A stretch of DNA of 64,000 nucleotides from positions 224,001 through 288,000 of the forward strand of contig CAVTBR010000002.1 of NCBI GenBank assembly GCA_963733055.1. Direction: 5' to 3'. The stretch's first letter is position 1; every line of letters starts with the position of its first letter. The notes under the pieces were generated by a model that saw only the letters and a list, made by a program, of their open reading frames with translations, made no database searches and was not told the DNA's origin. The position numbers were made by a program, and so were the translations under genes. Below, piece after piece: positions 14,822 through 29,586 of this stretch. This DNA comes from Candidatus Bathyarchaeota archaeon. GTDB lineage: Archaea > Thermoproteota > Bathyarchaeia > 40CM-2-53-6.

Positions 14822-14941
14822 GGACCTTCAGGAGAAATTCATCTTTGGGGAGTATTATACGCGTTCCCTCATATTCAGCCATAACCGTTATAGCAACTCG
14901 TTGAGGGTCAGGTGCTGGGGCCGACCCTGTCCAACCGATGT

Positions 14942-15164
14942 GGGGCCGTAGTCACTCCGAGGGAGTGGCGGTGTCTAGCCAGGGATGACGACAGGGATAC
15001 GTACCCGCCAAGGGCTCCAGAAGACCAAACCTTAACGGGTTTGCGGACCTGAACGGAATGACGAACTTCAGGAGCGAAGAAACCCGTAGACATGACGGTA
15101 TGGCGGAAGTCGAGGGTTCAAAATGGTTCACGGCCGAACCATGAGAGTCCCTTCGGCCCCACCA
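14942..15164 (+). tRNA. tRNA-Trp(CCA) with five BHB introns: 14952-14973, 14993-15011, 15021-15081, 15090-15108, 15123-15147
   Basis: Spliced product GGGGCCG TA GTCT AGCCAGGGA TGAC G ACGGG CTCCAGA CCCGT AGGTC GAGGG TTCAAAT CCCTT CGGCCCC ACCA (77 nt); each junction shows a 4-bp helix with 3-nt bulges. Confidence 0.9.
15146..15164 (+). repeat. attL (19-bp direct repeat)
   Basis: AGTCCCTTCGGCCCCACCA, identical to 27386-27404. Confidence 0.93.
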
Positions 15165-15223
15165 CATGCATCAAACGAGTCCTTATATTCATATTAGAGC
15201 ACAGGCTGTAGAGGCGTCATGAG

Positions 15224-16732
15224 TTGCCTCGCCTCCCCAAATACGAGAAATTGAAAGAAGATCCAAACCTCAAACTTTGGTTCGATAATCACAGCAAGCA
15301 AATCACAGCAAAAGGGGACTTGCGACGTCTCGGGCTGTTTTGTGAACTGTTCAACGTTACCCCTCAAGACATCGTCGAGTTAGCCCAACCGCCAGCTTCG
15401 CCCCTTGATGCCAAGAAGTGGATCATTGGGAAAGTAGCGATACTACAGGACGAAAAACACGGTTTTAAGGGAAATTATGTTGCGAATTTTGTTAAATCTT
15501 TGGTAAGTTGGCTTGGGCATAACGGAATCACTCTACCTGAGAAACCAGAGATTCACATTAAAGGACGAGGCAAAAACAGGAAGTTTCGAGGAGAAGAACC
15601 GCCCTCACCTGATGAGCTTCAACAACTCTTAGATGTCATTTCTGACCTGCGACAAAAGGTGACAATCAGCCTAATCGCATTCAGCGGTCTCAGACCTCGC
15701 ACGCTCGGCAACCATGACGGTAGCGACGGATTAAGAATTAGAGATTTGCCTGAACTGCACATCGACTACAAGGAACGAAAAGTAACCTTCTACAGAATGG
15801 ACGAAAGAAAGAAGAAATTTCCTGCCATACCCACACGAATTGTCGTTAGAGAAGAAATTAACAAGGGCGAAGATAGAGAATACCAAACTTTCTTGAACCA
15901 ACAGGGTTGCCAGTTTCTCGAGTTTTACCTCAAAGACCGCATGACACCTAAACCACACAGAGTTTATGACAAGAAAGGCAGACCTGTCCTAGACAAAAAT
16001 GGCAAGCAGAAGGAGGAGCTTAGAGCCGAGAAGCTAACAGACGACAGCCCCATAATAGCCCATAACCACCCTTACCGTTTGCAGTATGAGAAGGTGGGCA
16101 AAATCAACTATTACACTGAAAGCTTTGTTCCCGCCCAGAACATCTCCTACGCCATAATCAGTCCGGTTTTCAAGAAGCTTGGATTGAAACAACCGAGCGG
16201 AGACGACAATCGACCTTACGTTTTGAGGTCGTACTTTGACAATCGGCTCATGAGTGCGGAATCAGACAAGAAAATAGGCGTAATCTACTCGTGGAGGCAA
16301 TATTGGATGGGGCATGTTGAAGGAATTGAAGCCGTTTACACCACAAACAAAGGAATTCCGAAAGACGTCATTGAACAAATGAGAAAGGCATATGCTCAAG
16401 CATCAGACCAATACCTCACCCCACCAAAAACAGCGCTAGTCAGTGCGGACGAAGCAATTGCTAAACTACGAAGAGACATCTTATCCGGGATAATGAGTGA
16501 AGAGGAAATCGGCAATCTCGGCGACTTATCTCAATACACAATGAAGCAGATACTGGATATGACGGGCAACAAGCTTCAACCAAAACAAACCGTCCCATCA
16601 AAGCCTTCTGGAGAAATCATAGAAGTCCCACGTGAACAAGTTGTCAAGAAAATGAACGAAGGCTACAAAATAGTCCAGAAACTGGATGACCACACCTTCG
16701 CCATGGAACCCAAAATCAACGTGACCTCTTGA
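15224..16732 (+). CDS. Tyrosine recombinase/integrase
   Basis: FSGLR (Arg), RPYVLRSYF (HxxR equivalent), WMGH...EAVY (catalytic His and Tyr). Confidence 0.9.
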   Translation: MPRLPKYEKLKEDPNLKLWFDNHSKQITAKGDLRRLGLFCELFNVTPQDIVELAQPPASPLDAKKWIIGKVAILQDEKHGFKGNYVANFVKSLVSWLGHNGITLPEKPEIHIKGRGKNRKFRGEEPPSPDELQQLLDVISDLRQKVTISLIAFSGLRPRTLGNHDGSDGLRIRDLPELHIDYKERKVTFYRMDERKKKFPAIPTRIVVREEINKGEDREYQTFLNQQGCQFLEFYLKDRMTPKPHRVYDKKGRPVLDKNGKQKEELRAEKLTDDSPIIAHNHPYRLQYEKVGKINYYTESFVPAQNISYAIISPVFKKLGLKQPSGDDNRPYVLRSYFDNRLMSAESDKKIGVIYSWRQYWMGHVEGIEAVYTTNKGIPKDVIEQMRKAYAQASDQYLTPPKTALVSADEAIAKLRRDILSGIMSEEEIGNLGDLSQYTMKQILDMTGNKLQPKQTVPSKPSGEIIEVPREQVVKKMNEGYKIVQKLDDHTFAMEPKINVTS

Positions 16733-17021
16733 CCTCTTTCTCAGCAAGCTCAATCAATACTTGCAACTTAATTCTTGCAATCTCCCAAGGTAAGGTGTCA
16801 AGTTCATTATCGAGAATCTGCGCCCTCACATCGCTATCCTCAGCCAGAAACTGCTTTCCCCAATTTCTTATAGCGACCAGAATCTTCTTTCGATTCTCTC
16901 CCGTGTCAATCATCCGTCGAATCTTAGCCAGATCATTGGAGGGAGCAATGACCCTCCGCACTCGCTCTCGGATAACGCTCTTACTTCGTGTCTTAGACTT
17001 CAAAACAAGACCAACAAACAA
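16716..17021 (-). CDS. Small basic hypothetical protein, convergent with the integrase
   Basis: 101 aa helical ORF overlapping the integrase stop. Confidence 0.5.
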   Translation of the reverse strand: MFVGLVLKSKTRSKSVIRERVRRVIAPSNDLAKIRRMIDTGENRKKILVAIRNWGKQFLAEDSDVRAQILDNELDTLPWEIARIKLQVLIELAEKEVKRSR

Positions 17022-17068
17022 GTCTTGCTTTCAACCATATATCAACAATAAATAAGTCTCCCGAAAAG

Positions 17069-17803
17069 GTGTGGGAGGTAACGCCAGCGGTCTCTGACTT
17101 GAGTTACTGCCACTGGAGAGATTTTAGAAGTTACGTTGAACACTGTTTCAAAAATCAGAATAATCCGCTCTCTAAGGCTTTATGCGCACTTTTTGCTTTC
17201 TCAGGTCTGAAACTCCAAGAAACCCGGCTAACTTTAGGAGACCTCACGGAATTCACCGTCACGAATAGTCAGGTTGGTACCAGCGCAACGCCTGCCAAGA
17301 TTGTCATCAGAGACAGGTCAAATATCCCAACACATTGTAGTTTCCTCAGCAGCGAAGGATGCGCCTATCTGGCAGAATATCTTCGCTACACGTGCATCGA
17401 TACGCCGAAATACCATGACCTATACCTCGGTGCTCCGCACACGGGAAGGTTGGTCTTCAATCAGAAACTCATCGCGCGTCAAAAGCTATCGCATATTGCG
17501 AAGATTTCAAGAACATATTTTCTTATGTCACTCCTTAAAGCGCAGAGTGAAAGGAGGACTGACCTGACAATCGATGCAATCAAGTTCCTAGCCGGTTATC
17601 CGGAAGAATCCACCGTCCGCCTCTTCAACGAACCAGAAATTGACCAGATCAGGAACCAATACGCTTCAATCGAAGACGAATACTTCGCAACAAGACCCAG
17701 GGAAACGAGTGAGAAATTACCAGATTTGAGCTGGGCAATGCGTATAGCAGAAGAAGAACATGAAAGACGGACTGGCGCGCATAAGCGCTCGCTTTGTTGT
17801 TGA
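17069..17803 (+). CDS. Degenerate integrase catalytic-domain paralogue
   Basis: FAFSGLK, PAKIVIR, SFLSSEGCAYLAEYL, RTYF, FLAGY, IDQIRNQYA align collinearly with the adjacent integrase, but catalytic residues are replaced. Confidence 0.7.
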   Translation: MWEVTPAVSDLSYCHWRDFRSYVEHCFKNQNNPLSKALCALFAFSGLKLQETRLTLGDLTEFTVTNSQVGTSATPAKIVIRDRSNIPTHCSFLSSEGCAYLAEYLRYTCIDTPKYHDLYLGAPHTGRLVFNQKLIARQKLSHIAKISRTYFLMSLLKAQSERRTDLTIDAIKFLAGYPEESTVRLFNEPEIDQIRNQYASIEDEYFATRPRETSEKLPDLSWAMRIAEEEHERRTGAHKRSLCC

Positions 17804-18288
17804 AGAATTCACTTGAAAGTAGAGAGGCGAGGAGACGCAAACATACACACCGCCCCAAGAAGCACGAATGCAAGTACCCAAACCGCAGACCATATTCTAT
17901 CTGTCACCATTGGTAATACTCCGACAAGCAAGATTAGCAGGTTGAACGAATCCGCCCATGAGGGTTATCCAGAGGGTCGGTCTTTACTCTGCAATATTCA
18001 GACCTTATCTGGCTTTAATTTCGACTCATAGCATGAGTTGAAAGAGGAGTCTTTCGTTGCGCACCACGTCCTTGAAGAAATTGCTCTCCTCTCAATGTCC
18101 TCATCTTCTACAACGTGGGTGCCGACTTTCAATAGCGGTTGTGTTAATCGCTGATTATGTTCTGTTAGGTTCTCGACCTCACGGATTTGGCGTTTGGCGA
18201 TAGGAATTAGAACTCGGTCTGTGCTTTCCGAGAAATCTCCCTTCGCCGCTTTTTATACCCTCACGGGAGTAATGGTAGGTGAAAATGC

Positions 18289-19698
18289 GTGGAATTCTGG
18301 GCGACATTACCAATCTTGATAGTGGCTGTCCTTCTCATCCCTCGCTATGTGTACGGTGAATGGTACGACAAAAGAGGACTTGCTCTCGCTGCCGTAACAT
18401 GGCTCTCTCATCTTTTAATCGTCTTCACGCTGGCTGACCAATTTCCATCGGGATCGCTATGGGACTTGGCTTTCTCGCTTTCTGTTTACTCACTGATCCT
18501 TCTTACCGCTCTATTGGTTGTTTGGGTTGCCTCCAAGTTTGGTTCAATTATGCCAGCACCAGAGACCATGCGACGATACGCTCACCAAGAAGCCGCCGAA
18601 CTTTCCAAAGATATATCTGCGTCGGTCGAAAGGAATGATGAAAAGCTGAACTCGAAGCTAGACTCGCTCGTTTCACGAGTCAAAAATTGTGAACGCAACT
18701 CAGCAGATCTTATCGCAAAAATTACTTCTCTGCAATTAGCATTCAACGAACACAACAATCGGTTATCAGCGCTTGAGGAAATATCTCTTTCGAAGCCAAT
18801 TGGAGGATCTGCCATCATTTCTCCTTCAATTGCACAGCCAGAGATGGACTACACTTTGGAAGAGCGGGGGTTGTTAAAGGAGGCTGAAGTTGGTCTGAGT
18901 AAAGCATTCGTCTTTGATGCAAGCCTACTACCTGACCAGATTTTTCTCAGTGTCTCACCAGAAGAGGAGGCGTTCATGAGGATGATCCGGCAGAGTGAGA
19001 TCAATGCTCCAAACGATCTGGTTCGGCGAACTGCGGGCGGGTTGACTGGTCGTTTTTCAGGGCAAGACGTAAGAGAGATAGCGCAAGCCCTAGAGAACAG
19101 AGGACTAATCGGTTCACGTCAAACACACTTAGAACCGGGGCGAGGAGGTCGGATGGCAACGGTCTATTCTGTCAGTCCTCGTGGTCGTAGCCTCTTCGCT
19201 CTAAACTGGAAGTTTTCGAGGGACGGAGGCGAGGAACATGGAGTGATCTTCAGGGCTGGAAGAGAGAAGGCATGGGAGATCGGACATAGAGTTATCCCCC
19301 TTCTTGACTCGCCGGCTCGAGAAAACCAACCAGATGCGCTGGAAGTCGCTCCAGACACTCTACTTCAGTGGAAATGGAGTGAGGTTGCAGCTATCGAGGT
19401 TCTGTCTTCACGGAAAATAAGGAACGAACCGAGGGGAGTCTTCGTTGATGCAGCAAAAAACTTCCAATACTCCTTCAGGTTTGTGGCATTGTGGTTTCCC
19501 GCCGAACTCACCCAGAACGTCGAAAGGCAATGGTCACGACTTCCCGCATGGCTAAAACAGAGAGTAATTCTCGTTCCGTTAGAAGTAACTGCGCCTAATG
19601 ACGATGAAGATGAATTCGAGGACGCCTATCTCAATGACCAGGGCTTTCCGAATTGGTATCGTCAGCAGCTTTCGGATAACCCACGTTTGCTAACGTAG
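18289..19698 (+). CDS. Membrane-anchored coiled-coil protein with putative wHTH and PD-(D/E)xK-like C-terminus
   Basis: 3 N-terminal TMs, heptad segment, LENRGLI...YSVSPRGR wHTH-like wing, EH...QPDAL...AIEV. Confidence 0.6.
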   Translation: MEFWATLPILIVAVLLIPRYVYGEWYDKRGLALAAVTWLSHLLIVFTLADQFPSGSLWDLAFSLSVYSLILLTALLVVWVASKFGSIMPAPETMRRYAHQEAAELSKDISASVERNDEKLNSKLDSLVSRVKNCERNSADLIAKITSLQLAFNEHNNRLSALEEISLSKPIGGSAIISPSIAQPEMDYTLEERGLLKEAEVGLSKAFVFDASLLPDQIFLSVSPEEEAFMRMIRQSEINAPNDLVRRTAGGLTGRFSGQDVREIAQALENRGLIGSRQTHLEPGRGGRMATVYSVSPRGRSLFALNWKFSRDGGEEHGVIFRAGREKAWEIGHRVIPLLDSPARENQPDALEVAPDTLLQWKWSEVAAIEVLSSRKIRNEPRGVFVDAAKNFQYSFRFVALWFPAELTQNVERQWSRLPAWLKQRVILVPLEVTAPNDDEDEFEDAYLNDQGFPNWYRQQLSDNPRLLT

Positions 19699-19727
19699 CT
19701 CCGAACATGCGAAGCGATGTTCGGAGC
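19698..19727. other. Perfect 11-bp inverted repeat hairpin
   Basis: GCTCCGAACAT-gcgaagcg-ATGTTCGGAGC. Confidence 0.8.
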
Positions 19728-20324
19728 ATGAAAATTGACCTTCAACCAACAACCGCCAACGCACCCAACATAATCAAGGTCATAAATGATATAGTCAATA
19801 ATGGAATTGAGTGTCGGTTGAGCTAATCTCGCCGCTCGTCTTACTTGAGAGGGCATCATTCGAATTCTGCCCTTGCGAAAATTACTTCATTTTATGAAGT
19901 TGCACTTTTTTTCCGCTCACAACGAAGTGACACGTTTCGGTTGCGCATACGGTAAAAAAGCCTAAGAGGAGTCCCGACAGATCCTCTAAGTGAGAGAATC
20001 ATTACCTTTCGAAATGATTCTGACCGTGGACGCTGACACCAAAGGGAATACCAGGGGGTTCATGGTATCAATTACCTCATCCCTACTCATCAGGTTGAAG
20101 CTATGGTAGATTTCTGATATGCACTGTTCGATATGATACCGTTTGACTGTTTTTGTATTGGTTGTTTCTTGTTGTACCGCCTTGATCGGTACGTATCAAC
20201 GACTGACATGCGACTTATTGCCTCCCCCGATCTTCGAGATTCTGTTGAAATTGAAATGGGAATTATGTGTGTGTCCAGGGGGAGACGAATGGCTTACTGT
20301 AAACATTGGCTATTCCTAACGCTC

Positions 20325-20774
20325 TCAGGCGCTTCCGATGACAACCTGCCCATACGGTGTAGTGATAACGGCTTGGACGCTGTGTCCTGCCCCGTTAGCA
20401 GGAAAGTTGACAGAAATCTCAGTTGTGACGGAGTTGCCTGCTGTGATAACCGCTTGAGAAGATAGAGTATTGCCGGAAACTTGCGCTCCTGTGTTATCGA
20501 CCACGCTGATTGTCAGTTGAGTCAATGTAACGTCGAAACTGTTACCGTTCGTAATCTTTACTTCGTACAAGGCTTCCAAGGTTCCCACGTTATAACTCGC
20601 CTGCCAGTGGACAATCTTGATAGCGGCTCCCGCATTTGCGAGGTTTTGTAGAGAGGACGCCTGATAGTAGAAATATCCCAAACCTCCAAGTGACACCGCA
20701 AGAAGGATAATCAAGACCAAGACAATCGGCGTCACGACAATCCTAGATTTACCACGCATGTTCCGGTTTGTCAT
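20325..20774 (-). CDS. Membrane-anchored small Ig-like exported protein
   Basis: N-terminal TM followed by a beta-rich domain (VKITNGN...ITAGNSVT). Confidence 0.7.
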   Translation of the reverse strand: MTNRNMRGKSRIVVTPIVLVLIILLAVSLGGLGYFYYQASSLQNLANAGAAIKIVHWQASYNVGTLEALYEVKITNGNSFDVTLTQLTISVVDNTGAQVSGNTLSSQAVITAGNSVTTEISVNFPANGAGHSVQAVITTPYGQVVIGSA

Positions 20775-20882
20775 GATTTTCTCATGAGAAATTCCTCGTA
20801 TTTAACACCTAATGCATCAAAGAGCATGAAAAATACAAAGTCTTAAGCACCGTGAAACCGTCCTCCTAGTTCGGCTTTTGGC

Positions 20883-21545
20883 TTGAAAACCGCAATCATT
20901 AGTTCGATTATCGTTTTCGTCATCGCATTAGTTCTTCTAACTGCACCTTGGTACCCAGCCGTGACGAGTCGGAATGTGGCTGAGTCTTTCACGTACACAT
21001 ACCAAGTCCCAACCGTGACTTACCAATCCCAGAATGTTTACACGCTGGCGCAACCGATAACTCTCCAAGGATTCTTTCAAAGCGGGGCGACTGCCAGTCA
21101 AGTTTACCAAGACTTAGGAGATGTTGCGCTTCAAGCTAACTCGTCAGTGGCAGTAGAGGTTAATCAATGCCAAAACTGCGACCTAGGTATATCGAAGGAT
21201 TTCGGCGATAAGGCAACTGTTTACTCTGTCTCGGGCTCTTCTTCCTTTGGAGACTTCATAGTTCCAGTCTCAGGTCAATACAGAATAGAGGTAGATAACC
21301 TTGGAACTACACCAGATGTAGTAAGCTCGATTGTGATAACCGAGAAGGTAGCGCAAGCTAGTATGCAGACGGAATTGGGTTACAACACCATAACGGTTGC
21401 TCGATACTCGGTGGTTGCGCTCGCTCCCAATCTAGTTCTTGGGCTCCTACCCTCTCTGATTATTCTCGGTGCGATCGTTCTTGTTGTGGCGATCTTGGTT
21501 CTCTTCGACAGAGGAATAATTATCATGGATTCCCGTCGCCGGTAA
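20883..21545 (+). CDS. Exported protein with N- and C-terminal TM segments
   Basis: Signal/TM, GOLD-like FIVPVSGQYRIEVDN, C-terminal TM and RRR. Confidence 0.7.
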   Translation: MKTAIISSIIVFVIALVLLTAPWYPAVTSRNVAESFTYTYQVPTVTYQSQNVYTLAQPITLQGFFQSGATASQVYQDLGDVALQANSSVAVEVNQCQNCDLGISKDFGDKATVYSVSGSSSFGDFIVPVSGQYRIEVDNLGTTPDVVSSIVITEKVAQASMQTELGYNTITVARYSVVALAPNLVLGLLPSLIILGAIVLVVAILVLFDRGIIIMDSRRR

Positions 21546-21555
21546 GGAGTTCTCT

Positions 21556-22158
21556 TTGTCCGGTCCGACAGAAATCAAGTCAAGAGGAAGAACCCATCCA
21601 TTCAAGGTTCGCCAGGCAAAGGTTCAAGATGCCAACAAGTATTTCGTTAGACTTCGCAGCAAAGATTTCAACGTCATTCTAAAGGGGGAAGGCGTGCAAA
21701 ATGTCGAAAACGTCCGGGATGCACCAGTTTGCATTCAATCGAAGGAATACCAACGATCACGTGTAGTATTGGCTAAGCGACCTCTTCACACGAAAAGTCA
21801 AGACGATCTGGACCCTGGGCAAATACGCCTCAATTGGGATCTTAGAAAAGACTTGGGGAACTTGGCGCTTGGTTCAAAGGTAGAAGTTAAGTCGCTCCTC
21901 TCCTCTTGCTCTCTCCTCTCATGTTACGGAAAATGCAGGCTCGCATGGAACCACCTCAGGCACTGCCCCATCGCCGCACACAGGTTGTTTCCGACGTTGC
22001 TCTGGGTAGTTGTGCCAACGATGCTGACATATCTCACTGTATCTGTCTTTGTGCCTTGCCTCAAGTCGCTGATGGTAGCGTTAGCGTTAGTATTCACGGT
22101 AATTGCTGTTCCTTACTCTAGCTATACTACCGTCACATCAGAATCGGGGGCAGTTTGA
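21556..22158 (+). CDS. CDC48-N-like double-psi barrel fused to two TM helices
   Basis: FKVRQAKVQDANKYFVRL and GQIRLNWDLRKDLGNLALGSKVEV resemble the two halves of the CDC48/VAT N domain. Confidence 0.5.
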   Translation: MSGPTEIKSRGRTHPFKVRQAKVQDANKYFVRLRSKDFNVILKGEGVQNVENVRDAPVCIQSKEYQRSRVVLAKRPLHTKSQDDLDPGQIRLNWDLRKDLGNLALGSKVEVKSLLSSCSLLSCYGKCRLAWNHLRHCPIAAHRLFPTLLWVVVPTMLTYLTVSVFVPCLKSLMVALALVFTVIAVPYSSYTTVTSESGAV

Positions 22159-22271
22159 CTTGTCTAGCCCAGACACGAAAGAAATGGGGTTCACATTACC
22201 AGACGGCTTGCGATTTACAAAACAGGCGTAGCAAAAATAGACTTGAGCTGAGCGCATTCTAGCATAAGCAG

Positions 22272-22586
22272 CTAAGCCGTGGTTTGCCCAACTGGTGGTG
22301 GGTGAAATATGTTACACGTGGTACAAAGCCACGCAACGCCTTGAGCTCTTTCAGGGTGATTCTTATTGTCGAGTTTGCCTTCCGGTCCCCGGAAGTCATG
22401 GTATAACTCACATTCCTTTCTGAAGGCATCTTCAGGAGAAGATGCGTATTCGAACTTAAACCGACCATATCCGCCAATGTGTTCCTTCAGTCGAGTCCTC
22501 ACATCAACATCAGCCCGACCGACACAGCGAACGTAGAAAGTCTTGCCCTCCTTGCGTCCGAGAACATATACTCCAGGAATTCGTAT
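22272..22586 (-). pseudogene. GIY-YIG nuclease-like gene, 5'-truncated
   Basis: Extended frame reads IPGVYVLGRKEGKTFYVRCVGRADVDVRTRLKEH...AFRKECELYH...LDNKNHP; an in-frame TGA lies just upstream with no canonical start. Confidence 0.6.
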
Positions 22587-22822
22587 TCAGTTTGGGGACC
22601 CACGGTTCCTTTGTGGATTTCCAAGACTCCTTTTGAATTAATCAAATTCAGTGTAACGTCACATCCCGATTGCAGGGAAGGGGATTCACAACATCGTGTG
22701 CGAATGCCTTGAATGTCATAGTGAAATTCATTGGTACCCGCTCAGTAATGGGGCAATAGTCAACACTTTTCGGTTTTGCGTTTTGAATCGAAAGCCAATG
22801 TTAAGGCAGAAATATCCCTTCA

Positions 22823-23233
22823 TTGCACAATCAAGAAATAATGAAGCCCAGATTACCAAAGAAGCGTCCTTCGAAAACTTTCAGAGAAATACTTCGGAAG
22901 TGGAAAATTGTTTGGGAGTTGCTTACAATCATTACCACTTTGGAAGGAGTAGCCAGCTTTGTTGACAGTGTGTTAGCATGGTTAAGCCCAGTTCATACTT
23001 CAATTATTCCTCCGACATCGACTCCGATTTCTTCACCAACAACTATCTTTACTACCATATTTGCAAACACTAGTACTACGTTTGCCCAAACTACACCGGT
23101 AACATACTTCTTCCCATACTACCCAAACTACCCAGTACACTACGTACACGCAGTAGCGGTAATTCCATACGAATTGAGCTTCCCCCTAGCACTGCTTTTC
23201 GGCATTCTGTGGTTCAAATCCCGGAGGGCTTGA
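22823..23233 (+). CDS. Small Thr/Pro-rich two-TM protein
   Basis: TM, PTSTPISSPTT linker, C-terminal IPYELSFPLALLFGILWFKSRRA. Confidence 0.6.
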   Translation: MHNQEIMKPRLPKKRPSKTFREILRKWKIVWELLTIITTLEGVASFVDSVLAWLSPVHTSIIPPTSTPISSPTTIFTTIFANTSTTFAQTTPVTYFFPYYPNYPVHYVHAVAVIPYELSFPLALLFGILWFKSRRA

Positions 23234-23275
23234 AAGGAGCAGATTAGTCCGATGCCCCACCATAAGTAGCTCTGC

Positions 23276-23995
23276 CTAACCTTTGTTGAAGCACAACTGA
23301 CTTTCAATCTTGCATAGGTCTTCGAGGAAGGGCGTAATGTCATTCCCGAAACATATAGCTCCATTCATTGCAGTTAGCACATAACAGACTAGCTTTTCAT
23401 AATTACGCTCAATCTGACATGGGATGCTCTGTTCAGGTACGGTATAGCGTCCCAGCAGAGTGAAACAATTCGCATACCCGAAACAGACCGTAGGTTCTTC
23501 TTTTGAATAGACTATGACTGGTACTCTCCTGATATTGTACCTCCTTTTTCGTTTCGGCTTTTTCTCTGTCTCTCCTTCTTCCTTGTCAGCCTTGATCACT
23601 CTGTACGATTCATCTAGAACTCCTTCGAATCGAAGAAAAGCAGGTAGGTCGGCTACTGGCACACTATGTATGATTCCTTCCACAGGTTCAGGGGATTCAG
23701 AGCCATTTGTCTGTTTAAGCTCATGAAGAGCATAAGCAAGTCCTCTCCTGCTTGATTTATTGTCCAGCCTTCTTTCGTAACCGCTTAGAGTACTTCTCAG
23801 GGCACAAAGCAAAGACAGGTTAGAACCATATTCCTTAATCTTGGATTCGAAATCTGGGCGGTAGAGATTGCTCCCATAACTGAACCAAGTTGAAATTGGG
23901 TTGACTTCCTCAGCTCGAATATTTTCTTCTTTAAACTCCCTTTGCAAGCATTCCAAAAAGGGACGAAATTCTACCATATCCATCGGGAAATTCAA
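23276..23995 (-). CDS. Gamma-glutamylcyclotransferase-fold protein
   Basis: WFSYGSNL motif, VEGII, FLRFEG. Confidence 0.6.
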   Translation of the reverse strand: MNFPMDMVEFRPFLECLQREFKEENIRAEEVNPISTWFSYGSNLYRPDFESKIKEYGSNLSLLCALRSTLSGYERRLDNKSSRRGLAYALHELKQTNGSESPEPVEGIIHSVPVADLPAFLRFEGVLDESYRVIKADKEEGETEKKPKRKRRYNIRRVPVIVYSKEEPTVCFGYANCFTLLGRYTVPEQSIPCQIERNYEKLVCYVLTAMNGAICFGNDITPFLEDLCKIESQLCFNKG

Positions 23996-24062
23996 CGACT
24001 CTTTATGAAACTATGCTAATAGATCAAATATTCAATAAACGAAACTCTTATCGGCGATACAT

Positions 24063-25397
24063 CTATTTTTGCGGTTTGTGCTCTTGGCAGTAGAAAGTCT
24101 TTGAAATAATGCCCTTTGAAGTCGCACAGCTAGTGCATAAGGGCTTTGAACAAATCGAGCAAGTCCTCGTATGAGACTCACATGCAATAGCCCCACAGTT
24201 TTCACAGACCACCACAGGTCTATCAGAACACAACTGGCACTTACTGGTCTGATCAAGCATTAACTCACCAGTCGAAGCCAAGCAAGTTCTAGTGTATGCA
24301 AAGTTTCGGAACTTGTACGTCCCTGTCAGAAGAGGAATCTTGACCGGTTCAACATTGAGGATTTCGACATCCTTCTTCTTGGGATTGAGGAGTTTTGAAC
24401 GTGTTGTTGGGATCGGTATTCTCGCTATACGTACTCCTGAGGACACATGGTAGGAATATTCGCTTGAAAGACCCTTAACGAGTTCAACCTTGGCGATGGC
24501 TTTGGCACGCCCCGAGTCTATCCGAGCTCGGCTCGTTGAAACTGGCAGGTCATGTGGCAAACTCGCCGCTGTGACGGTCTGAGTTTGCATCCCTCTACAC
24601 CCAGCGTAGGCCCCGTGACTAGGCAAATCAGCTTCCTGTCCGGCTGATGTTGCTGAATCAACGACTCGTCCGTCAACAGCATCTATTGTCAGGGTTCCTT
24701 TGCTTTCCATTATCGTCGAATCACCTCTGACTGTGAACTGAGAGAAGCAATGGTAATCAAGGAAATAATAGGGTCTGAAGTCGAGTTCCTTCGATTCGGA
24801 GAAGACACTATAGTTTTTCAGATGTTTTGGAGCAATCATATCAATTGAGTCGGGATTGACCGGAAGAGCATCATGGATTATGTCTCTTTCCGGTGTCTCC
24901 TGTCTTGAAATCTTTTCCTCTAACGCCTTCTCGTCCCAAAGCTCAATATTTACTGAAGCGGCATCTGCCTCCGCATCTGTCGTGAATCCCCCAGTTGAAA
25001 CAAAGATGCCTTTGGTTATTCCTAGAGCCGACAGCTTGTCGTTGAAGTTCCTGATCTCTTTGATGTCTATCCGAGACCGAACATTCTTGCATTCAACAGC
25101 GATCTGTATTATTCCAAAATCCTCTCTCTTCGCTGCCAAGACATCTATTTCGTGATAAACATCTCTGCGGTCTCTCATTTTGGTTCTTATCTGAACGTCG
25201 TAACCCTTGCTCCGAAAGTAGCCTGCAACAGAATCTTCGAGTTCTCCGCCTTTCTCCTTCATGGAAATCTGTTTGGTAGCTGGAGAGGGATCCCTAGCTG
25301 CCTTCAGTTTAGTTCCACAGCTAGGGCAAAAGAATAAGCTGGAATCGACCTTTGCTCCACAGCTAGAACAAAAAGGCAAGTGCACCCTTCCAGCCAT
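24063..25397 (-). CDS. Mrr-like restriction endonuclease with N-terminal double zinc ribbon and C-terminal Cys-rich domain
   Basis: CSSCG..CPSCG; EIDVLA...IAVECK; GIFVSTGGFT; C-terminal CxxC clusters. Confidence 0.85.
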   Translation of the reverse strand: MAGRVHLPFCSSCGAKVDSSLFFCPSCGTKLKAARDPSPATKQISMKEKGGELEDSVAGYFRSKGYDVQIRTKMRDRRDVYHEIDVLAAKREDFGIIQIAVECKNVRSRIDIKEIRNFNDKLSALGITKGIFVSTGGFTTDAEADAASVNIELWDEKALEEKISRQETPERDIIHDALPVNPDSIDMIAPKHLKNYSVFSESKELDFRPYYFLDYHCFSQFTVRGDSTIMESKGTLTIDAVDGRVVDSATSAGQEADLPSHGAYAGCRGMQTQTVTAASLPHDLPVSTSRARIDSGRAKAIAKVELVKGLSSEYSYHVSSGVRIARIPIPTTRSKLLNPKKKDVEILNVEPVKIPLLTGTYKFRNFAYTRTCLASTGELMLDQTSKCQLCSDRPVVVCENCGAIACESHTRTCSICSKPLCTSCATSKGIISKTFYCQEHKPQK

Positions 25398-25467
25398 TAC
25401 AGGAGATAGGTAATGTTAGAACTGCTAGGCTTTTCGACCACTACTCTCCTTGAGACAGTTTTCATAC

Positions 25468-27039
25468 TTATCGCCATTCGGGACGCTCTTTCATGATCTT
25501 TTCGTACGCCTTCTGAATTGCGTCAAATACGTGGGCTGAGTTAGGGTTTCTGCTCATGTCTGGATGGTATATGGTTGCGAGTCTAAGTTTCGCCTTTTTC
25601 ACTTCATCGTAGCTGGCTGTTGGCGAAACTCCGAGTAAGACATAAGCGTCCATGCCTTCGAGCGATTCCTTACTCAACTCTGTCAGACGCTGCTCATATG
25701 TCAGCCTTAAGCGATCGGTGCGCTCCTCCGCTTCTTGTACCCGGTGTTCCATTTCCCTAATCCTTCGAACAGTGTCATCAGTCTTCTTCAACCCTCTCAA
25801 GTTTCTCAGACGCTGCTCATTCAGCCTTACCCGTTCCGTACTCTCTTTTACCCTGCGTTCAAATCCTTCTAGCTGGCTTTGCATTTTCTTAATCCTTCGA
25901 GTGGTGTCATCAAAGTTCAAACTCTTCATATATTTGAGTACGATCCGCTTATGGTTACGATAATCCGGATCGTTAGGGTTAAGCTGAATTGCGGCATCTA
26001 ACTCCTTTAGCGCCTCCTCAAACCTGTTCAACCCACCGAGTGCAGCCCCCTTACTGTCATGGAACTTTGGTTCGTCGGGGTCAAGTCGGATTGCTATACT
26101 CAACTCCTTGACAGCTTCAGCAAATCTCTCCAACCCAATGAGTTCCCCCGCCTTATTGTGATGATGAATTGGTTCGTCGGGGTCAAGTCGTATCGCTATG
26201 TCGAACTCTTTGAGAGCCTCCTCAGATCGATTCAACCCACCAAGTGCAGTCCCCTTCTTGCTATGGGGCGTTGGATTGTCCGTGTCAAGTCGAATGGCTA
26301 TATCGTACTCCTTAACAGCTTTAGCGAACTTTCCAAGCTCATTGAGCGTGTGCCCCTTATTGATGTGATGAGCCGGATCGTCGGGGTCAAGTCGTATCGC
26401 TATGTCGAACTCTTTGAGAGCCTCCTCCAACCTGTTCAACCCGACAAGTGTAGCGCCCTTGTTGTTATGATAAACCGGATCGTTAGGGCTAAGTCGGATT
26501 GCTTTATCGTACTCCTTCACAGCCTCCTCTAGCTTGCCCGACTCACGGAGTGTATTCCCCTTAGCACTATGCCGGATTGGATTGTGGGGGTCGAGTTTGA
26601 TTGCCATATCGTACTCCTTGACAGCTTTGGCAGTCTTTCCCAGCTCATCGAGTGCATCCCCCTTACTGTGATGATAATCCGGATCCGGATTGTTGCGATC
26701 AAGTTTGAGTGCGATATCGTATTCCGTAGTAGCCTCACCGAACCTCTTCAACCCATCGAGTGCAATCCCTTTATTGTAATGATAATCCGGTTTGTTGGGG
26801 TTAAGTCGGATAGCAGCATCATACTCCCTGACTGCGTAGTCAAGTCTGTTCAATTTACGGAGTGCGTCCCCCTTGTCCTTATGATAGATTGGATTGTGTA
26901 GGTCGAGTCGGATTGCGATATCGTATTCCGTGATAGCTTCCTCAAACTTTTCCCGATAGAAGAGGTCGTCCCCCTTGTTCTTGTGATAGCCCGGATCGTC
27001 TACATCTTTCGAAAGTGCATCTTTCAAACTGATCCACAT
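25468..27039 (-). CDS. TPR-repeat protein with coiled coil and C-terminal J domain
   Basis: ~10 34-aa TPRs; AYVLLGV...YHPD J-domain motif. Confidence 0.9.
   Translation of the reverse strand: MWISLKDALSKDVDDPGYHKNKGDDLFYREKFEEAITEYDIAIRLDLHNPIYHKDKGDALRKLNRLDYAVREYDAAIRLNPNKPDYHYNKGIALDGLKRFGEATTEYDIALKLDRNNPDPDYHHSKGDALDELGKTAKAVKEYDMAIKLDPHNPIRHSAKGNTLRESGKLEEAVKEYDKAIRLSPNDPVYHNNKGATLVGLNRLEEALKEFDIAIRLDPDDPAHHINKGHTLNELGKFAKAVKEYDIAIRLDTDNPTPHSKKGTALGGLNRSEEALKEFDIAIRLDPDEPIHHHNKAGELIGLERFAEAVKELSIAIRLDPDEPKFHDSKGAALGGLNRFEEALKELDAAIQLNPNDPDYRNHKRIVLKYMKSLNFDDTTRRIKKMQSQLEGFERRVKESTERVRLNEQRLRNLRGLKKTDDTVRRIREMEHRVQEAEERTDRLRLTYEQRLTELSKESLEGMDAYVLLGVSPTASYDEVKKAKLRLATIYHPDMSRNPNSAHVFDAIQKAYEKIMKERPEWR
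25940..27000 (-). repeat. 102-bp tandem TPR-coding repeats
   Basis: e.g. TCGTCGGGGTCAAGTCG at 26072, 26174 and 26378; ~50 bp identical between the 26174 and 26378 copies. Confidence 0.85.
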
Positions 27040-27385
27040 GCCTTCGAGTCAGATATATTGTACTTGGCTATCCCTTGGAATTCTTTGTGGTCGCTGAGTG
27101 ACCAGTCTATGAGCCAAGTTCTTTCGTTTTCTTTGTGTGGTTTTCGACACGGTCTCACGATGTGCCAAAAGGTTCGTAAGCCGAAATCCAAAATTAGCCG
27201 ATCAGCCAAAGCCAACGTAAGAATGATGAATCCTTTAATGTTCAACACCTCAGCCAGCAGGTAGCCGCAATCAGTGATTCGTTTTCTGTCATTTACTGTT
27301 GAAGTTTCCAGTGAGGCTGGAGGATTGAGACACGAACGCCTCGAAATAACACGATATGGAAGCAACTCACTTGATGCAACAAGCT

Positions 27386-27404
27386 AGTCCCTTCGGCCCC
27401 ACCA
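27386..27404 (+). repeat. attR (duplicated tRNA-Trp 3' end)
   Basis: AGTCCCTTCGGCCCCACCA. Confidence 0.93.
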
Positions 27405-27480
27405 TCATACTCTTTTTCCCTGTCCGCTGGATGACGCGCTTCTAGAGTCCGCTCCCCCTCACAAGCTCTCTGTCAGGAAT

Positions 27481-28235
27481 TCATTTCGAGAGCGAGAGGG
27501 TCAAGCCTTCCTCGGCTATCAGAAGCTCGCCTCTGAATTCGCGAGCCGCTTCGGATCGAGAGACCTCGCGGTCGTCTCCAGGCCAGAAGTGAGTCAGCAT
27601 CAAGCGCGCCGCGCCCGCCTCCCGAGCGTAGCGTCCCGCCTCACCCGCGGTTAGGAGGAAACGAACCGGGCCTTCGTGCGGCACCGCCTGGTGAGTCGCC
27701 TCGCACACGAACAAGTCAGCTCCACGTGAGAGTTCCACGATCTGTTCAGTCGGTCCGGTGTCTCCGGTATAGGCGATCACGAGTCCCTCCACTTCAACTC
27801 GGAAGCCGAGACTTGGGACGAAGTGGGGTAGTGCCACCGTCCGGACGCAAAGGGTCCGACCTCAACCGTCTGGTCGGGGCCGATCGCATGGAAATCACAC
27901 CCCCGCCGCAGCCGCGCCGGCCCCTCGGCACCGTCGAGACTCCCTACCCGGTCCATCACGTCTGGGAACGCGTAGACGGAGAGGGGCGGGAACGGAGGCT
28001 CCGGAAGGGCGCGCGCCCGGTAGAGTCCGTAGAGGTCGACGCAGTGGTCTGCGTGCGCGTGAGTGACGAAGACCGCATCAACGTCCTGAGCGGGGCAGTG
28101 ATCAAGGAGGCGTGGCAGCGCACCGAATCCGAGGTCGAGGACCACGCGCTGGCCGGCCGATTCGAGCAGGTAGCCGCTGCACGCACGCCCTCGTTCAGGC
28201 CAAGCGCCACTGCTGCCGAGTACGGTGAATTGCAC
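27481..28235 (-). pseudogene. MBL-fold metallohydrolase (RNase Z/BN-like), 1-nt frameshift near 27848
   Basis: VLGSSG, THAHADH in ORF 27777-28235; YTGDTG, LTHFWP in ORF 27481-27837; high GC. Confidence 0.8.
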
Positions 28236-28273
28236 TATCCGTCACACTCCTAGTGTGAGGTAGTATGCTGTTG

Positions 28274-29586
28274 TTACTGGTATTTGTTTTGGACTTCAAG
28301 GCTGTCCGGCCCAAAATCGCTTCGCTCCGGATCTGTGAAGTCTACTTTGGGCATCTCTCTCAAACCAATTACTTCACTGAAAAGAATCCATATCGCCGCT
28401 GCTCCGGATAACGCGCCGCCGATGAGTATCGTGGGTACGATTCCAATATAGAGCCCGAGGATACCCCCGATGAATGATCCCGCAGGTAAAGTTCCCCAGT
28501 TTATTGTTCGCACGGTTGCGTTCATCCGTCCTTGAAGTTTATCGGAAACTAGGGATTGTCGGAGACTGACGGTGTTGATGTTGTAAATAGGCAGCATGAG
28601 GCCCGAGACGAAGCCGACGGCGCCCATTATTGGATACGCGTAACCGTACAGTGCGAGCGGTTGCAACATCGCGACGATCGGGACGAAGATCGATATAGCA
28701 ATCGACGGCCCCAATCCAACTTTCTTTGTGAAGTTCGGCGCGAGTAAAGCCCCTAGCAAGAATCCGACTGCGGTAATTGTTCCAAGAACGCCAATAGTAG
28801 CTGGCGTGAAGTGGAGCATTTTGAGTAGGAAGATGGTAAGTATAGCTTGGAATATCGAGCTGCCCAGGTTTGCTGTGGCCGTGGAAAACATCATCTTCTG
28901 ATTATGTCACTATCAAATACGATGTGGATTCCTTCTTTCATTTCAGCAAAGAAATTCCTACCCCCTGACATCGGGTGGTCGGACGAAGGGGTTGGTTCAG
29001 GCTTTTGTATGGAGAGGAGCGCGAGAGCGGAAGCTAAGTAACCTATCGCGTCTACCGCTATCGTGAATGCTCCGCCTATGATTTCGTAGATGAAGCCCGC
29101 GATAGTTGGCCCCACGACCTGAGCTCCTGACCAGCTCGTCTGAAGCTTCGCGTTTCCTTCGACCAAATCTGCACGGTCTACCAATACCGGGAGATAGGAT
29201 TGGTAGGATATTTCGAAGAAAACCGTGAAGATGCCATTGATCACGGCCACAGCGTAGAGTTGGTAGATTGTCAAGGCGGAAAGGGAGTAAGCGACGGGAA
29301 TTGACGCGAGGGTAATCATTCGGCCAAAGTTGCATGCAATCATTATTGGCCGCTTTCGCGAACGGTCTGCGATCACGCCCACAAAGAGCCCTAGTATGGG
29401 AAAGGAGATTGTCTGCAGAGCTATTAGCAGGCCGAGTTGAAACGCGTTCACAGTGAGACTCAGAACCGCAAGAATAGGGAGAGCTAGGGACGTGAACTGG
29501 TTGCCAAATTGACTGACCGTGTCACTTAGCCACAACCGTCTGAAATCTCGATGAGACCACAGGTGACCTCTCGACGGAAATTTCAA
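28274..29586 (-). pseudogene. MFS transporter split by a frameshift near 28895
   Basis: DFRRLW, GVIADRSRKR in the N-half; RQSLVSDKLQGRMN in the C-half; the halves abut out of frame. Confidence 0.8.

Follow-up and report, generated by a model that had tools for sequence, protein, structure and literature searches.

A cryptic integrative element at the 3' end of a five-intron tRNA-Trp gene in a Candidatus Bathyarchaeota archaeon, with a short attachment site that is very probably a trait of its integrase family

The stretch of DNA analyzed here, hereafter the window, comprises 64,000 nucleotides from a Candidatus Bathyarchaeota archaeon (GenBank assembly GCA_963733055.1, contig CAVTBR010000002.1, positions 224,001 to 288,000 of the forward strand). 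The 2.88-Mb source genome is referred to as G000, and all other G numbers denote genomes of relatives. We found that the window carries a real but ordinary integrated element of the pNOB8 style, inserted at the 3' end of a tRNA-Trp(CCA) gene with five introns, and that its short 3'-terminal attachment site (att) is typical of its integrase family. We hold it to be very probable that this is a cryptic integrative element of ~12.2 kb whose short att is a property of that family and not a consequence of the intron in the T loop. A preliminary description of the window had taken the att to be short as the only 3' stretch left by the intron, a snapshot of an arms race between intron and integrase. 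This did not hold up, because the same short repeats are found at tRNA genes with an uninterrupted T arm.

The target gene escapes the usual tools, as neither ARAGORN nor Rfam detects tRNA-Trp in the unspliced window, in which no tRNA is called at all. After its five introns (22 nt at 14952-14973, 19 nt at 14993-15011, 61 nt at 15021-15081, 19 nt at 15090-15108 and 25 nt at 15123-15147) were removed by hand, the remaining 77 nt were called by ARAGORN as tRNA-Trp(cca) with a normal cloverleaf and with the CCA encoded in the gene. The introns lie at about positions 10/11, 28/29, 37/38, 45/46 and 59/60. The 59/60 intron shows the full bulge-helix-bulge (BHB) arrangement, with a 4-bp central helix (TTCA/TGAG) between two 3-nt bulges, an outer helix of 5 bp that is the T stem and an inner helix of 6 bp; its removal restores a T loop of 7 nt. 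A BHB scan places the cuts between 15122 and 15123 and between 15147 and 15148. What is left beyond the second cut is the last exon, exon 6 (TCCCTTCGGCCCCACCA, 15148-15164, 17 nt), preceded by the terminal AG of the intron, which forms the first two bases of the 3' bulge. We aligned 21 copies of the gene (the window and 20 more, from 20 genomes of the genus and order); all of them contain the 59/60 intron, and its inner helix shows compensatory changes across them. The five-intron architecture is maintained across the order, the gene itself is kept in 35 of 41 relatives, and a multi-intron tRNA-Trp without the 59/60 intron was seen in only four genomes, which belong to one sister family.

The direct repeat that bounds the element is the 19-mer AGTCCCTTCGGCCCCACCA, present exactly twice in the window (15146-15164 and 27386-27404) and on the + strand only. 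The window holds no other match to it at up to two mismatches, and none of 100 shuffles gave two matches. Even with up to one mismatch allowed, the 17-mer core has no third occurrence anywhere in the genome. The sequence after the distal copy starts with TCATAC, carries a T5 run at 27413-27417 and resembles the tRNA downstream flanks of the empty sites in G019 and G005. Since a native tRNA flank and a T5 run follow it, the distal copy looks as the right attachment site (attR) should. The preliminary description had identified the repeat as exon 6 plus the terminal AG of the 59/60 intron, and the exact matches, the BHB scan and the spliced ARAGORN call bear this out.

Next to the two copies lies a pair of inverted repeats, TGCATCAAACGAGT at the left end and ACTCACTTGATGCA at the right end (Table 1), which are complementary at 12 of 14 bases, a score reached by 31 of 2000 shuffles. 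An element at the same tRNA in the relative G003 has the same pair, with a match of 16/18. When the ends are joined, the order reads right inverted repeat, 7 bp, the 19-bp core, 2 bp and left inverted repeat. The pair would therefore provide candidate integrase-binding arms of the attachment site of the element (attP), and the crossover would fall within the identical 17-19 bp.

The integrase gene is the first open reading frame (ORF) inside the repeats, lies on the tRNA strand 59 bp past the tRNA end, and matches its homologues over their full length. The protein alone has no match in Pfam or PHROG and only a weak one to the XerA model of NCBIfam (E=0.012). It has 233 homologues, several of them named site-specific integrase, in metagenome-assembled genomes of Bathyarchaeia, Nitrososphaerales, Thermoplasmata and Odinarchaeia. 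A profile of the family matched the XerA structures 5hxy (E=2.3e-6) and 4a8e (E=1.9e-4), and 7 of 25 family members matched PF00589. TAL-effector rows in the same profile search of the PDB were dismissed as repeat noise (0 significant stretches). In an alignment of 25 sequences R157, K214, Y332, R335 and Y372 never vary, and the conservation of H364 reaches at least 90%, which gives the pattern R..K..(H/Y)xxR..H..Y; judged from the motif context (AFSGLRP, RPYVLR, WMGH, EAVYTT), these residues would take the catalytic roles. For the fold we used an alignment-based AlphaFold 2 model with a predicted local distance difference test (pLDDT) score of 86.9, as a single-sequence run reached a pLDDT of only 35.5. 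The top Foldseek matches were XerA, IntI, Cre, XerH and lambda Int, with E-values down to 2.4e-7. The integrase shares the fold of the solved structures of XerA, IntI and Cre (Foldseek E 2.4e-7 to 1e-5) but is only 12-17% identical to them in sequence, has a query-normalised TM-score of just 0.25-0.41, and differs by a C-terminal extension of ~130 residues and insertions in the catalytic domain (502 versus ~280-320 aa). The product of 15224-16732 belongs to the tyrosine recombinase (phage integrase) superfamily. The 12.2-kb region bounded by the repeats thus starts with an integrase by profile and by fold, as had been described.

Comparison with relatives supplied an empty site. G019, the closest relative, has a tRNA region 96% identical and a left flank 91% identical to those of the window, and ~57 nt after its tRNA it continues with a homologue of the window from 28346 onward. 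The tRNA flank of G005 is similar to this empty site, and in run X4 a single contig, which stems from a relative, connects 15164 with 28346, one of its sides being only 30 nt long. The preliminary description had suggested a search for empty sites; with G019 empty, the region is not syntenic in all relatives. A sister element was found in G003, where an integrase 73% identical sits at the same tRNA, with the same left end, a homologous right end (locus L050) and the inverted repeats mentioned above. The metagenome contigs L176 and L179 show the same left end. In 3 of the 4 metagenome contigs that cover the 5' end of a homologous integrase gene, the integrase comes right after the intron-bearing tRNA-Trp, and different relatives have different sequence content downstream of this same tRNA.

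The insert itself (15165-27385) has a GC content of ~0.44-0.50 (about 0.46 over 15001-26000), versus ~0.50-0.53 upstream (about 0.51). Scans against Pfam, PHROG and PADLOC found no viral, plasmid or replication hallmark genes among its ORFs. A cargo of mostly ORFans without viral or plasmid hallmark genes would suit the notion that the repeat is a meaningless product of chance or duplication and the region ancestral host DNA lost in relatives. We consider this notion extremely improbable, as it is contradicted by the shuffles, which never reproduced the repeat, by the integrase adjoining the tRNA, by the lower GC of the insert, by the homologous ends of the sister element in G003, by the varied content after the same tRNA in different relatives, and by the native flank with its T-run after the distal copy.

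The 941 bp that follow attR (27405-28345) were rejected as a part of the element, because the native tRNA flank comes directly after attR and the GC content there is 0.56. This segment is likewise missing in G019 and represents a separate indel adjoining attR. It holds a gene of the metallo-beta-lactamase fold (Lactamase_B_2) on the minus strand (27440-28345), which is split into two overlapping frames (27481-27837 and 27777-28235) and is probably frameshifted.

The evidence on the length of the att comes from the integrase family, which is present in 95 of 301 genomes of the class. A query with the single integrase protein recovered no related loci in genome, metagenome or viral contigs, and a query with an alignment of 14 sequences recovered 12 loci from metagenomes and none from viral contigs. 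Read by eye, 18 of 19 further family loci have the integrase just after the 3' end of a tRNA. We examined 26 family loci for a repeat, taken as 15 bp or more of exact identity. Where the T arm of the target tRNA is uninterrupted, repeats of 18 bp start at tRNA position 61 in G000:C1 (own genome), 58 in G039:C1 (where the repeat appeared only after extension to 80 kb) and 57 in G300:C1; G155:C27 has repeats of 18 and 17 bp starting at 59 and 60, G090:C2 one of 21 bp starting at 56, and G123:C4b one of 15 bp starting at 62. The left edge thus falls at positions 56-62 and the length at 15-21 bp in 6 of the 7 elements with an intact T arm. The preliminary description had proposed to compare att lengths among related integrases; these use a short att regardless of intron status, the outcome that it had named as speaking against its own reading. 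The element of G000:C1 (1542074-1548776) is a second one of the same family in the source genome. It measures ~6.6 kb, has a GC content of 0.556 and occupies a tRNA whose T arm is intact and whose anticodon region reads GAT; its 18-bp repeat is CCGGCCAGGCCCACCATT.

Against this background we regard as distinctly unlikely that the 59/60 intron cut the usable target and that the element persists on the one unbroken 3' stretch. It is true that the repeat begins no more than 2 nt from the intron-exon boundary, and that in G018, whose host intron ends in AA, the repeat is 17 bp and consists of the exon only; yet repeats equally short and with a matching left edge occur where no intron interrupts the T arm, and in G003 the repeat at tRNA-Trp runs 11 nt into the intron. 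Protection of tRNA genes against integrating elements by introns is an idea in print (Randau and Soll, as cited in excerpts of PMC3293823 and PMC4033280), and it lends the arms race a precedent. However, an intron found in all 21 aligned copies across the genus and order must predate these elements, and tRNA-Trp is a hot spot in spite of it, as judged from extra 3'-end copies in genomes of the genus.

A further argument in favor of the arms race is offered by the tRNA-Glu gene of the source genome (G000:C3:503170-546926). It is followed by a different, PF00589-type integrase of 286 aa and then by a type I restriction R subunit. Copies of the tRNA-Glu 3' end lie 18.9 and 43.6 kb away, and the resulting repeats, 32 and ~27 bp long, extend across the entire T arm; the locus looks like a tandem pair of integrated elements. 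An integrase of this type uses an intact T arm, and a 59/60 intron would break such a site.

Several observations weigh against our reading of the element and its short att. Only 7 of the 26 family loci yielded a repeat of 15 bp or more, all of them with an uninterrupted T arm; the other loci lie on short contigs or gave no repeat in the 6-80 kb that were fetched. G037:C42, G017:C6, G011:C1 and G017:C4 yielded no repeat of 12 bp or more, and none was seen for G296:C1 within 51 kb or for ten short-contig loci. The family is also not uniform. In G003:C2 a repeat of 38 bp, with further copies of 15-18 bp, starts at positions 52/53 and so includes the T loop, though the T arm of this tRNA is intact. 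The 59/60 intron could still exclude integrases like the PF00589 type at tRNA-Glu. Finally, among the 20 sequencing runs listed, each of which contained no more than 0.19 of the sampled words and all of which were contigs, the assembled contigs of 4 runs (contigs, not reads) showed no joint from 27404 to 15165 that would mark a circular form with attP.

The bases beside the core were compared between hosts and elements. In 18 tRNA-linked copies from 16 genomes the last two intron bases are AG in 9, AA in 6, AT in 2 and AC in 1, and the host intron of the closest relative, G019, ends in AA. On the element-derived side, represented by 13 copies outside tRNA genes, the core is preceded by AG in 8 and by GG in 3. 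As AG or GG stands in 11 of these 13 copies, the 2-nt overlap between repeat and intron is not random. The preliminary description had allowed that it might be chance; it is not pure chance and depends on a polymorphic host position, with AG conserved on the side of the element. In G018 and G021, where the host has AA, the repeat comprises the 17-nt exon and nothing more. In G003, element and host are identical over 28 bp, of which 11 are intronic, and the att therefore extends beyond the exon. The window element reads AACAAGCTAG where the intron reads AACCATGAGAG, and elements whose target is an intron-less or a different tRNA (G039:C1, G149:C161) have a degenerate T-loop-like sequence on the left side of the core. 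The attP looks like a decaying copy of an intron-bearing gene, in which only the last 17-19 bp were kept identical.

These bases also bear on the proposal that a Trp-specific clade of integrases has adapted to the intron-bearing allele, such that the left arm of the host attachment site (attB) is intron DNA and the intron-derived bases of attP are required. The 11 intron nucleotides shared by the attP-derived side in G003, the likeness of AACAAGCTAG to AACCATGAGAG in the window, and the AG (8/13) or GG (3/13) of the element side at a place where host genes vary would all fit, as would the integrations in G018 and G021, which occurred despite a mismatch between host and element at position -1. 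Just two attR sites of the Trp-specific clade were recovered, however, and the attP of the window differs from the intron at 3 of 11 positions and by an indel, which suggests a weak constraint. Degenerate target-like sequence to the left of the core also occurs at the other targets named above and would be expected from the decay of a captured copy. We rate this adaptation as rather unlikely. Equally doubtful, in our judgment, is a view of the intron as a filter and not a wall, which would exclude integrases that need the whole T arm and leave a clade specialized on the last exon whose attP took up intron bases.

The intron-bearing tRNA-Trp is an integration hot spot in the genus. In a search of 23 genus genomes, exact extra copies of the 17-mer outside the tRNA were found in G000, G003, G018 (two), G021 (two) and G004 (two), and degenerate extra copies of the tRNA-Trp 3' end in G011, G014 and G020. 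The intron does not act as a barrier in the sense of Randau and Soll: elements sit at the intron-bearing tRNA-Trp in several genomes of the genus, and the core used by the family lies 3' of the intron. Some of these loci have an arrangement of their own. Three direct copies of the Trp 3' end bound elements of 17.3 and 6.3 kb in G018 (C2:243201-266788), three degenerate copies lie ~900 bp apart in G020 (C38:6350-8174), and two exact copies are inverted in G004 (C48:1075-2713).

The course of integration can be proposed from these observations. The element would have entered the 3' end of the single tRNA-Trp gene of the host by site-specific recombination catalyzed by its own tyrosine recombinase, with an attP that carried a copy of the last ~17-19 bp of tRNA-Trp. 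The tRNA 3' end at the left attachment site (attL) would thereby have been rebuilt from element DNA, and the original 3' end with its T-run terminator displaced to attR; this direction of recombination is what the flanks suggest. As the core lies entirely 3' of position 59/60, the intron would neither block nor shape it. To the left of the core, attP would be a decaying copy of whatever the host gene has there, which in this case is the 3' end of an intron.

The arrangement in the window is pNOB8-style and not SSV-style (Sulfolobus spindle-shaped virus), as the integrase gene is not split by integration. In pNOB8-type elements an intact integrase gene adjoins the rebuilt tRNA on the same strand and attP lies outside it (compare the excerpted text of PMC3293823), and the element is bordered by direct repeats derived from the tRNA 3' end, as it is here; the likeness drawn is one of gene arrangement. 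According to the excerpts of PMC6563490, att lengths of 29-69 bp are quoted for crenarchaeal elements, in contrast to the 19 bp found here. A short 3'-terminal att in integrated elements is already described for Thaumarchaeota, with a median of 17 bp and with elements both in tRNA genes that lack introns (29) and in those that contain them (10; Krupovic et al. 2019, PMC6563490, in its excerpted part). From the same excerpts, the thaumarchaeal elements resemble ours in that the short att lies mostly in the 3'-distal part of the tRNA and the cargo is rich in ORFans, and differ from it in that here a T-loop intron abuts the core and the host tRNA has five introns. The integrase of the window forms a further link to that group through its homologues in Nitrososphaerales. 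At the tRNA-Thr locus of Caldiarchaeum (Sugahara et al. 2012, PMC3293823, in the passages available), a recombinase-bearing mobile element likewise stands beside an intron-containing tRNA; these passages discuss an attP that carries intron sequence and propose that the element donated the intron to the host gene. In the present case, unlike that of Caldiarchaeum as given there, the intron is kept throughout the order and no more than its last 2-11 nt fall within the repeat, so that no intron transfer can be deduced at tRNA-Trp.

The locus amounts to a clean natural test of whether tRNA introns shield their genes from integrating elements. Members of this integrase family are not kept out, since their core occupies the final ~17 nt of the gene, past the most 3' intron position, and the reach of the intron-protection hypothesis is limited by this result. 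It also provides a defined pair of substrates for bench work, namely attB with and without the 59/60 intron, both of which are natural within the order; the form without it is that of G142, G149, G158 and G306, and the order includes it in sister families. If the view of the intron as a filter were true, the left recombinase-binding arm of attB would be intron DNA, and the locus would be direct evidence, at the sequence level, for the adaptation of an integrase to an intron-bearing allele.

Table 1 Features of the tRNA-Trp gene and the integrated element, in window coordinates.
Feature	Position	Strand	Evidence or remark
tRNA-Trp(CCA) gene, five introns	14942..15164	+	ARAGORN on spliced model, BHB motifs, conservation
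tRNA-Trp exons	14942-14951, 14974-14992, 15012-15020, 15082-15089, 15109-15122, 15148-15164	+	
59/60 intron, 25 nt, canonical hBHBh'	15123..15147	+	BHB scan and inner-helix compensatory changes
attL copy of the 19-bp repeat (2 intron bases and 17-nt exon 6)	15146..15164	+	exact match
Left-end inverted repeat, putative integrase-binding arm of attP	15167..15180	+	pairs with 27365-27378
Integrase, tyrosine recombinase, 502 aa, intact	15224..16732	+	profile, conserved residues, fold
Integrase-like ORF, 244 aa, probably degenerate or partial	17069..17803	+	family hidden Markov model E=2.5e-10; no Pfam match
ORFan, 469 aa, N-terminal hydrophobic segment	18289..19698	+	no Pfam, PHROG or PADLOC match
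Zinc-ribbon and Mrr-like restriction endonuclease domain protein, 444 aa, cargo	24063..25397	-	PF04471 E=7e-18; PADLOC PDC-S02 E=2.4e-10
TPR-repeat protein with C-terminal DnaJ (J) domain, 523 aa, cargo	25468..27039	-	TPR to E=4.5e-67; DnaJ 9.5e-12
Right-end inverted repeat, 7 bp before the core	27365..27378	+	pairs with 15167-15180
attR copy of the 19-bp repeat, followed by native tRNA downstream flank	27386..27404	+	exact match, flank likeness

Besides the integrase-like ORF and the two cargo proteins with recognizable domains, the insert encodes small membrane-like ORFs and the ORFan at 18289-19698, which has 2 homologues among 5.8 billion proteins.

The five-intron tRNA-Trp is a more unusual object at this locus than the element, as three introns are the known maximum per tRNA gene in the excerpted text of a 2014 review (PMC4033280). 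A second Trp gene that ARAGORN placed at C3:707572 was dismissed as a poor call with a forced long arm; it resembles another multi-intron tRNA. In its intron mode ARAGORN called 33 tRNA genes in the source genome, 29 of them with an intron, and several of these calls are doubtful, the forced 'Trp' being one example. Standard tRNA finders under-annotate this genome.

The 61-nt intron of tRNA-Trp (15021-15081) contains AUGACGA, which reads AUGAUGA in G029, G037 and G025, and the stretch after it is complementary at 8 of 9 bases to the anticodon-loop sequence CTCCAGAAG; in these respects it resembles a box C/D guide. The pre-tRNA-Trp intron of Haloferax contains a box C/D guide and forms a parallel to it. 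Upstream of the gene, a copy of the 5' strand of the acceptor stem, GGGGCCGA, is located at 14917-14924, ~18 nt before the tRNA start. This copy is conserved in order-level relatives and might form an alternative leader helix.

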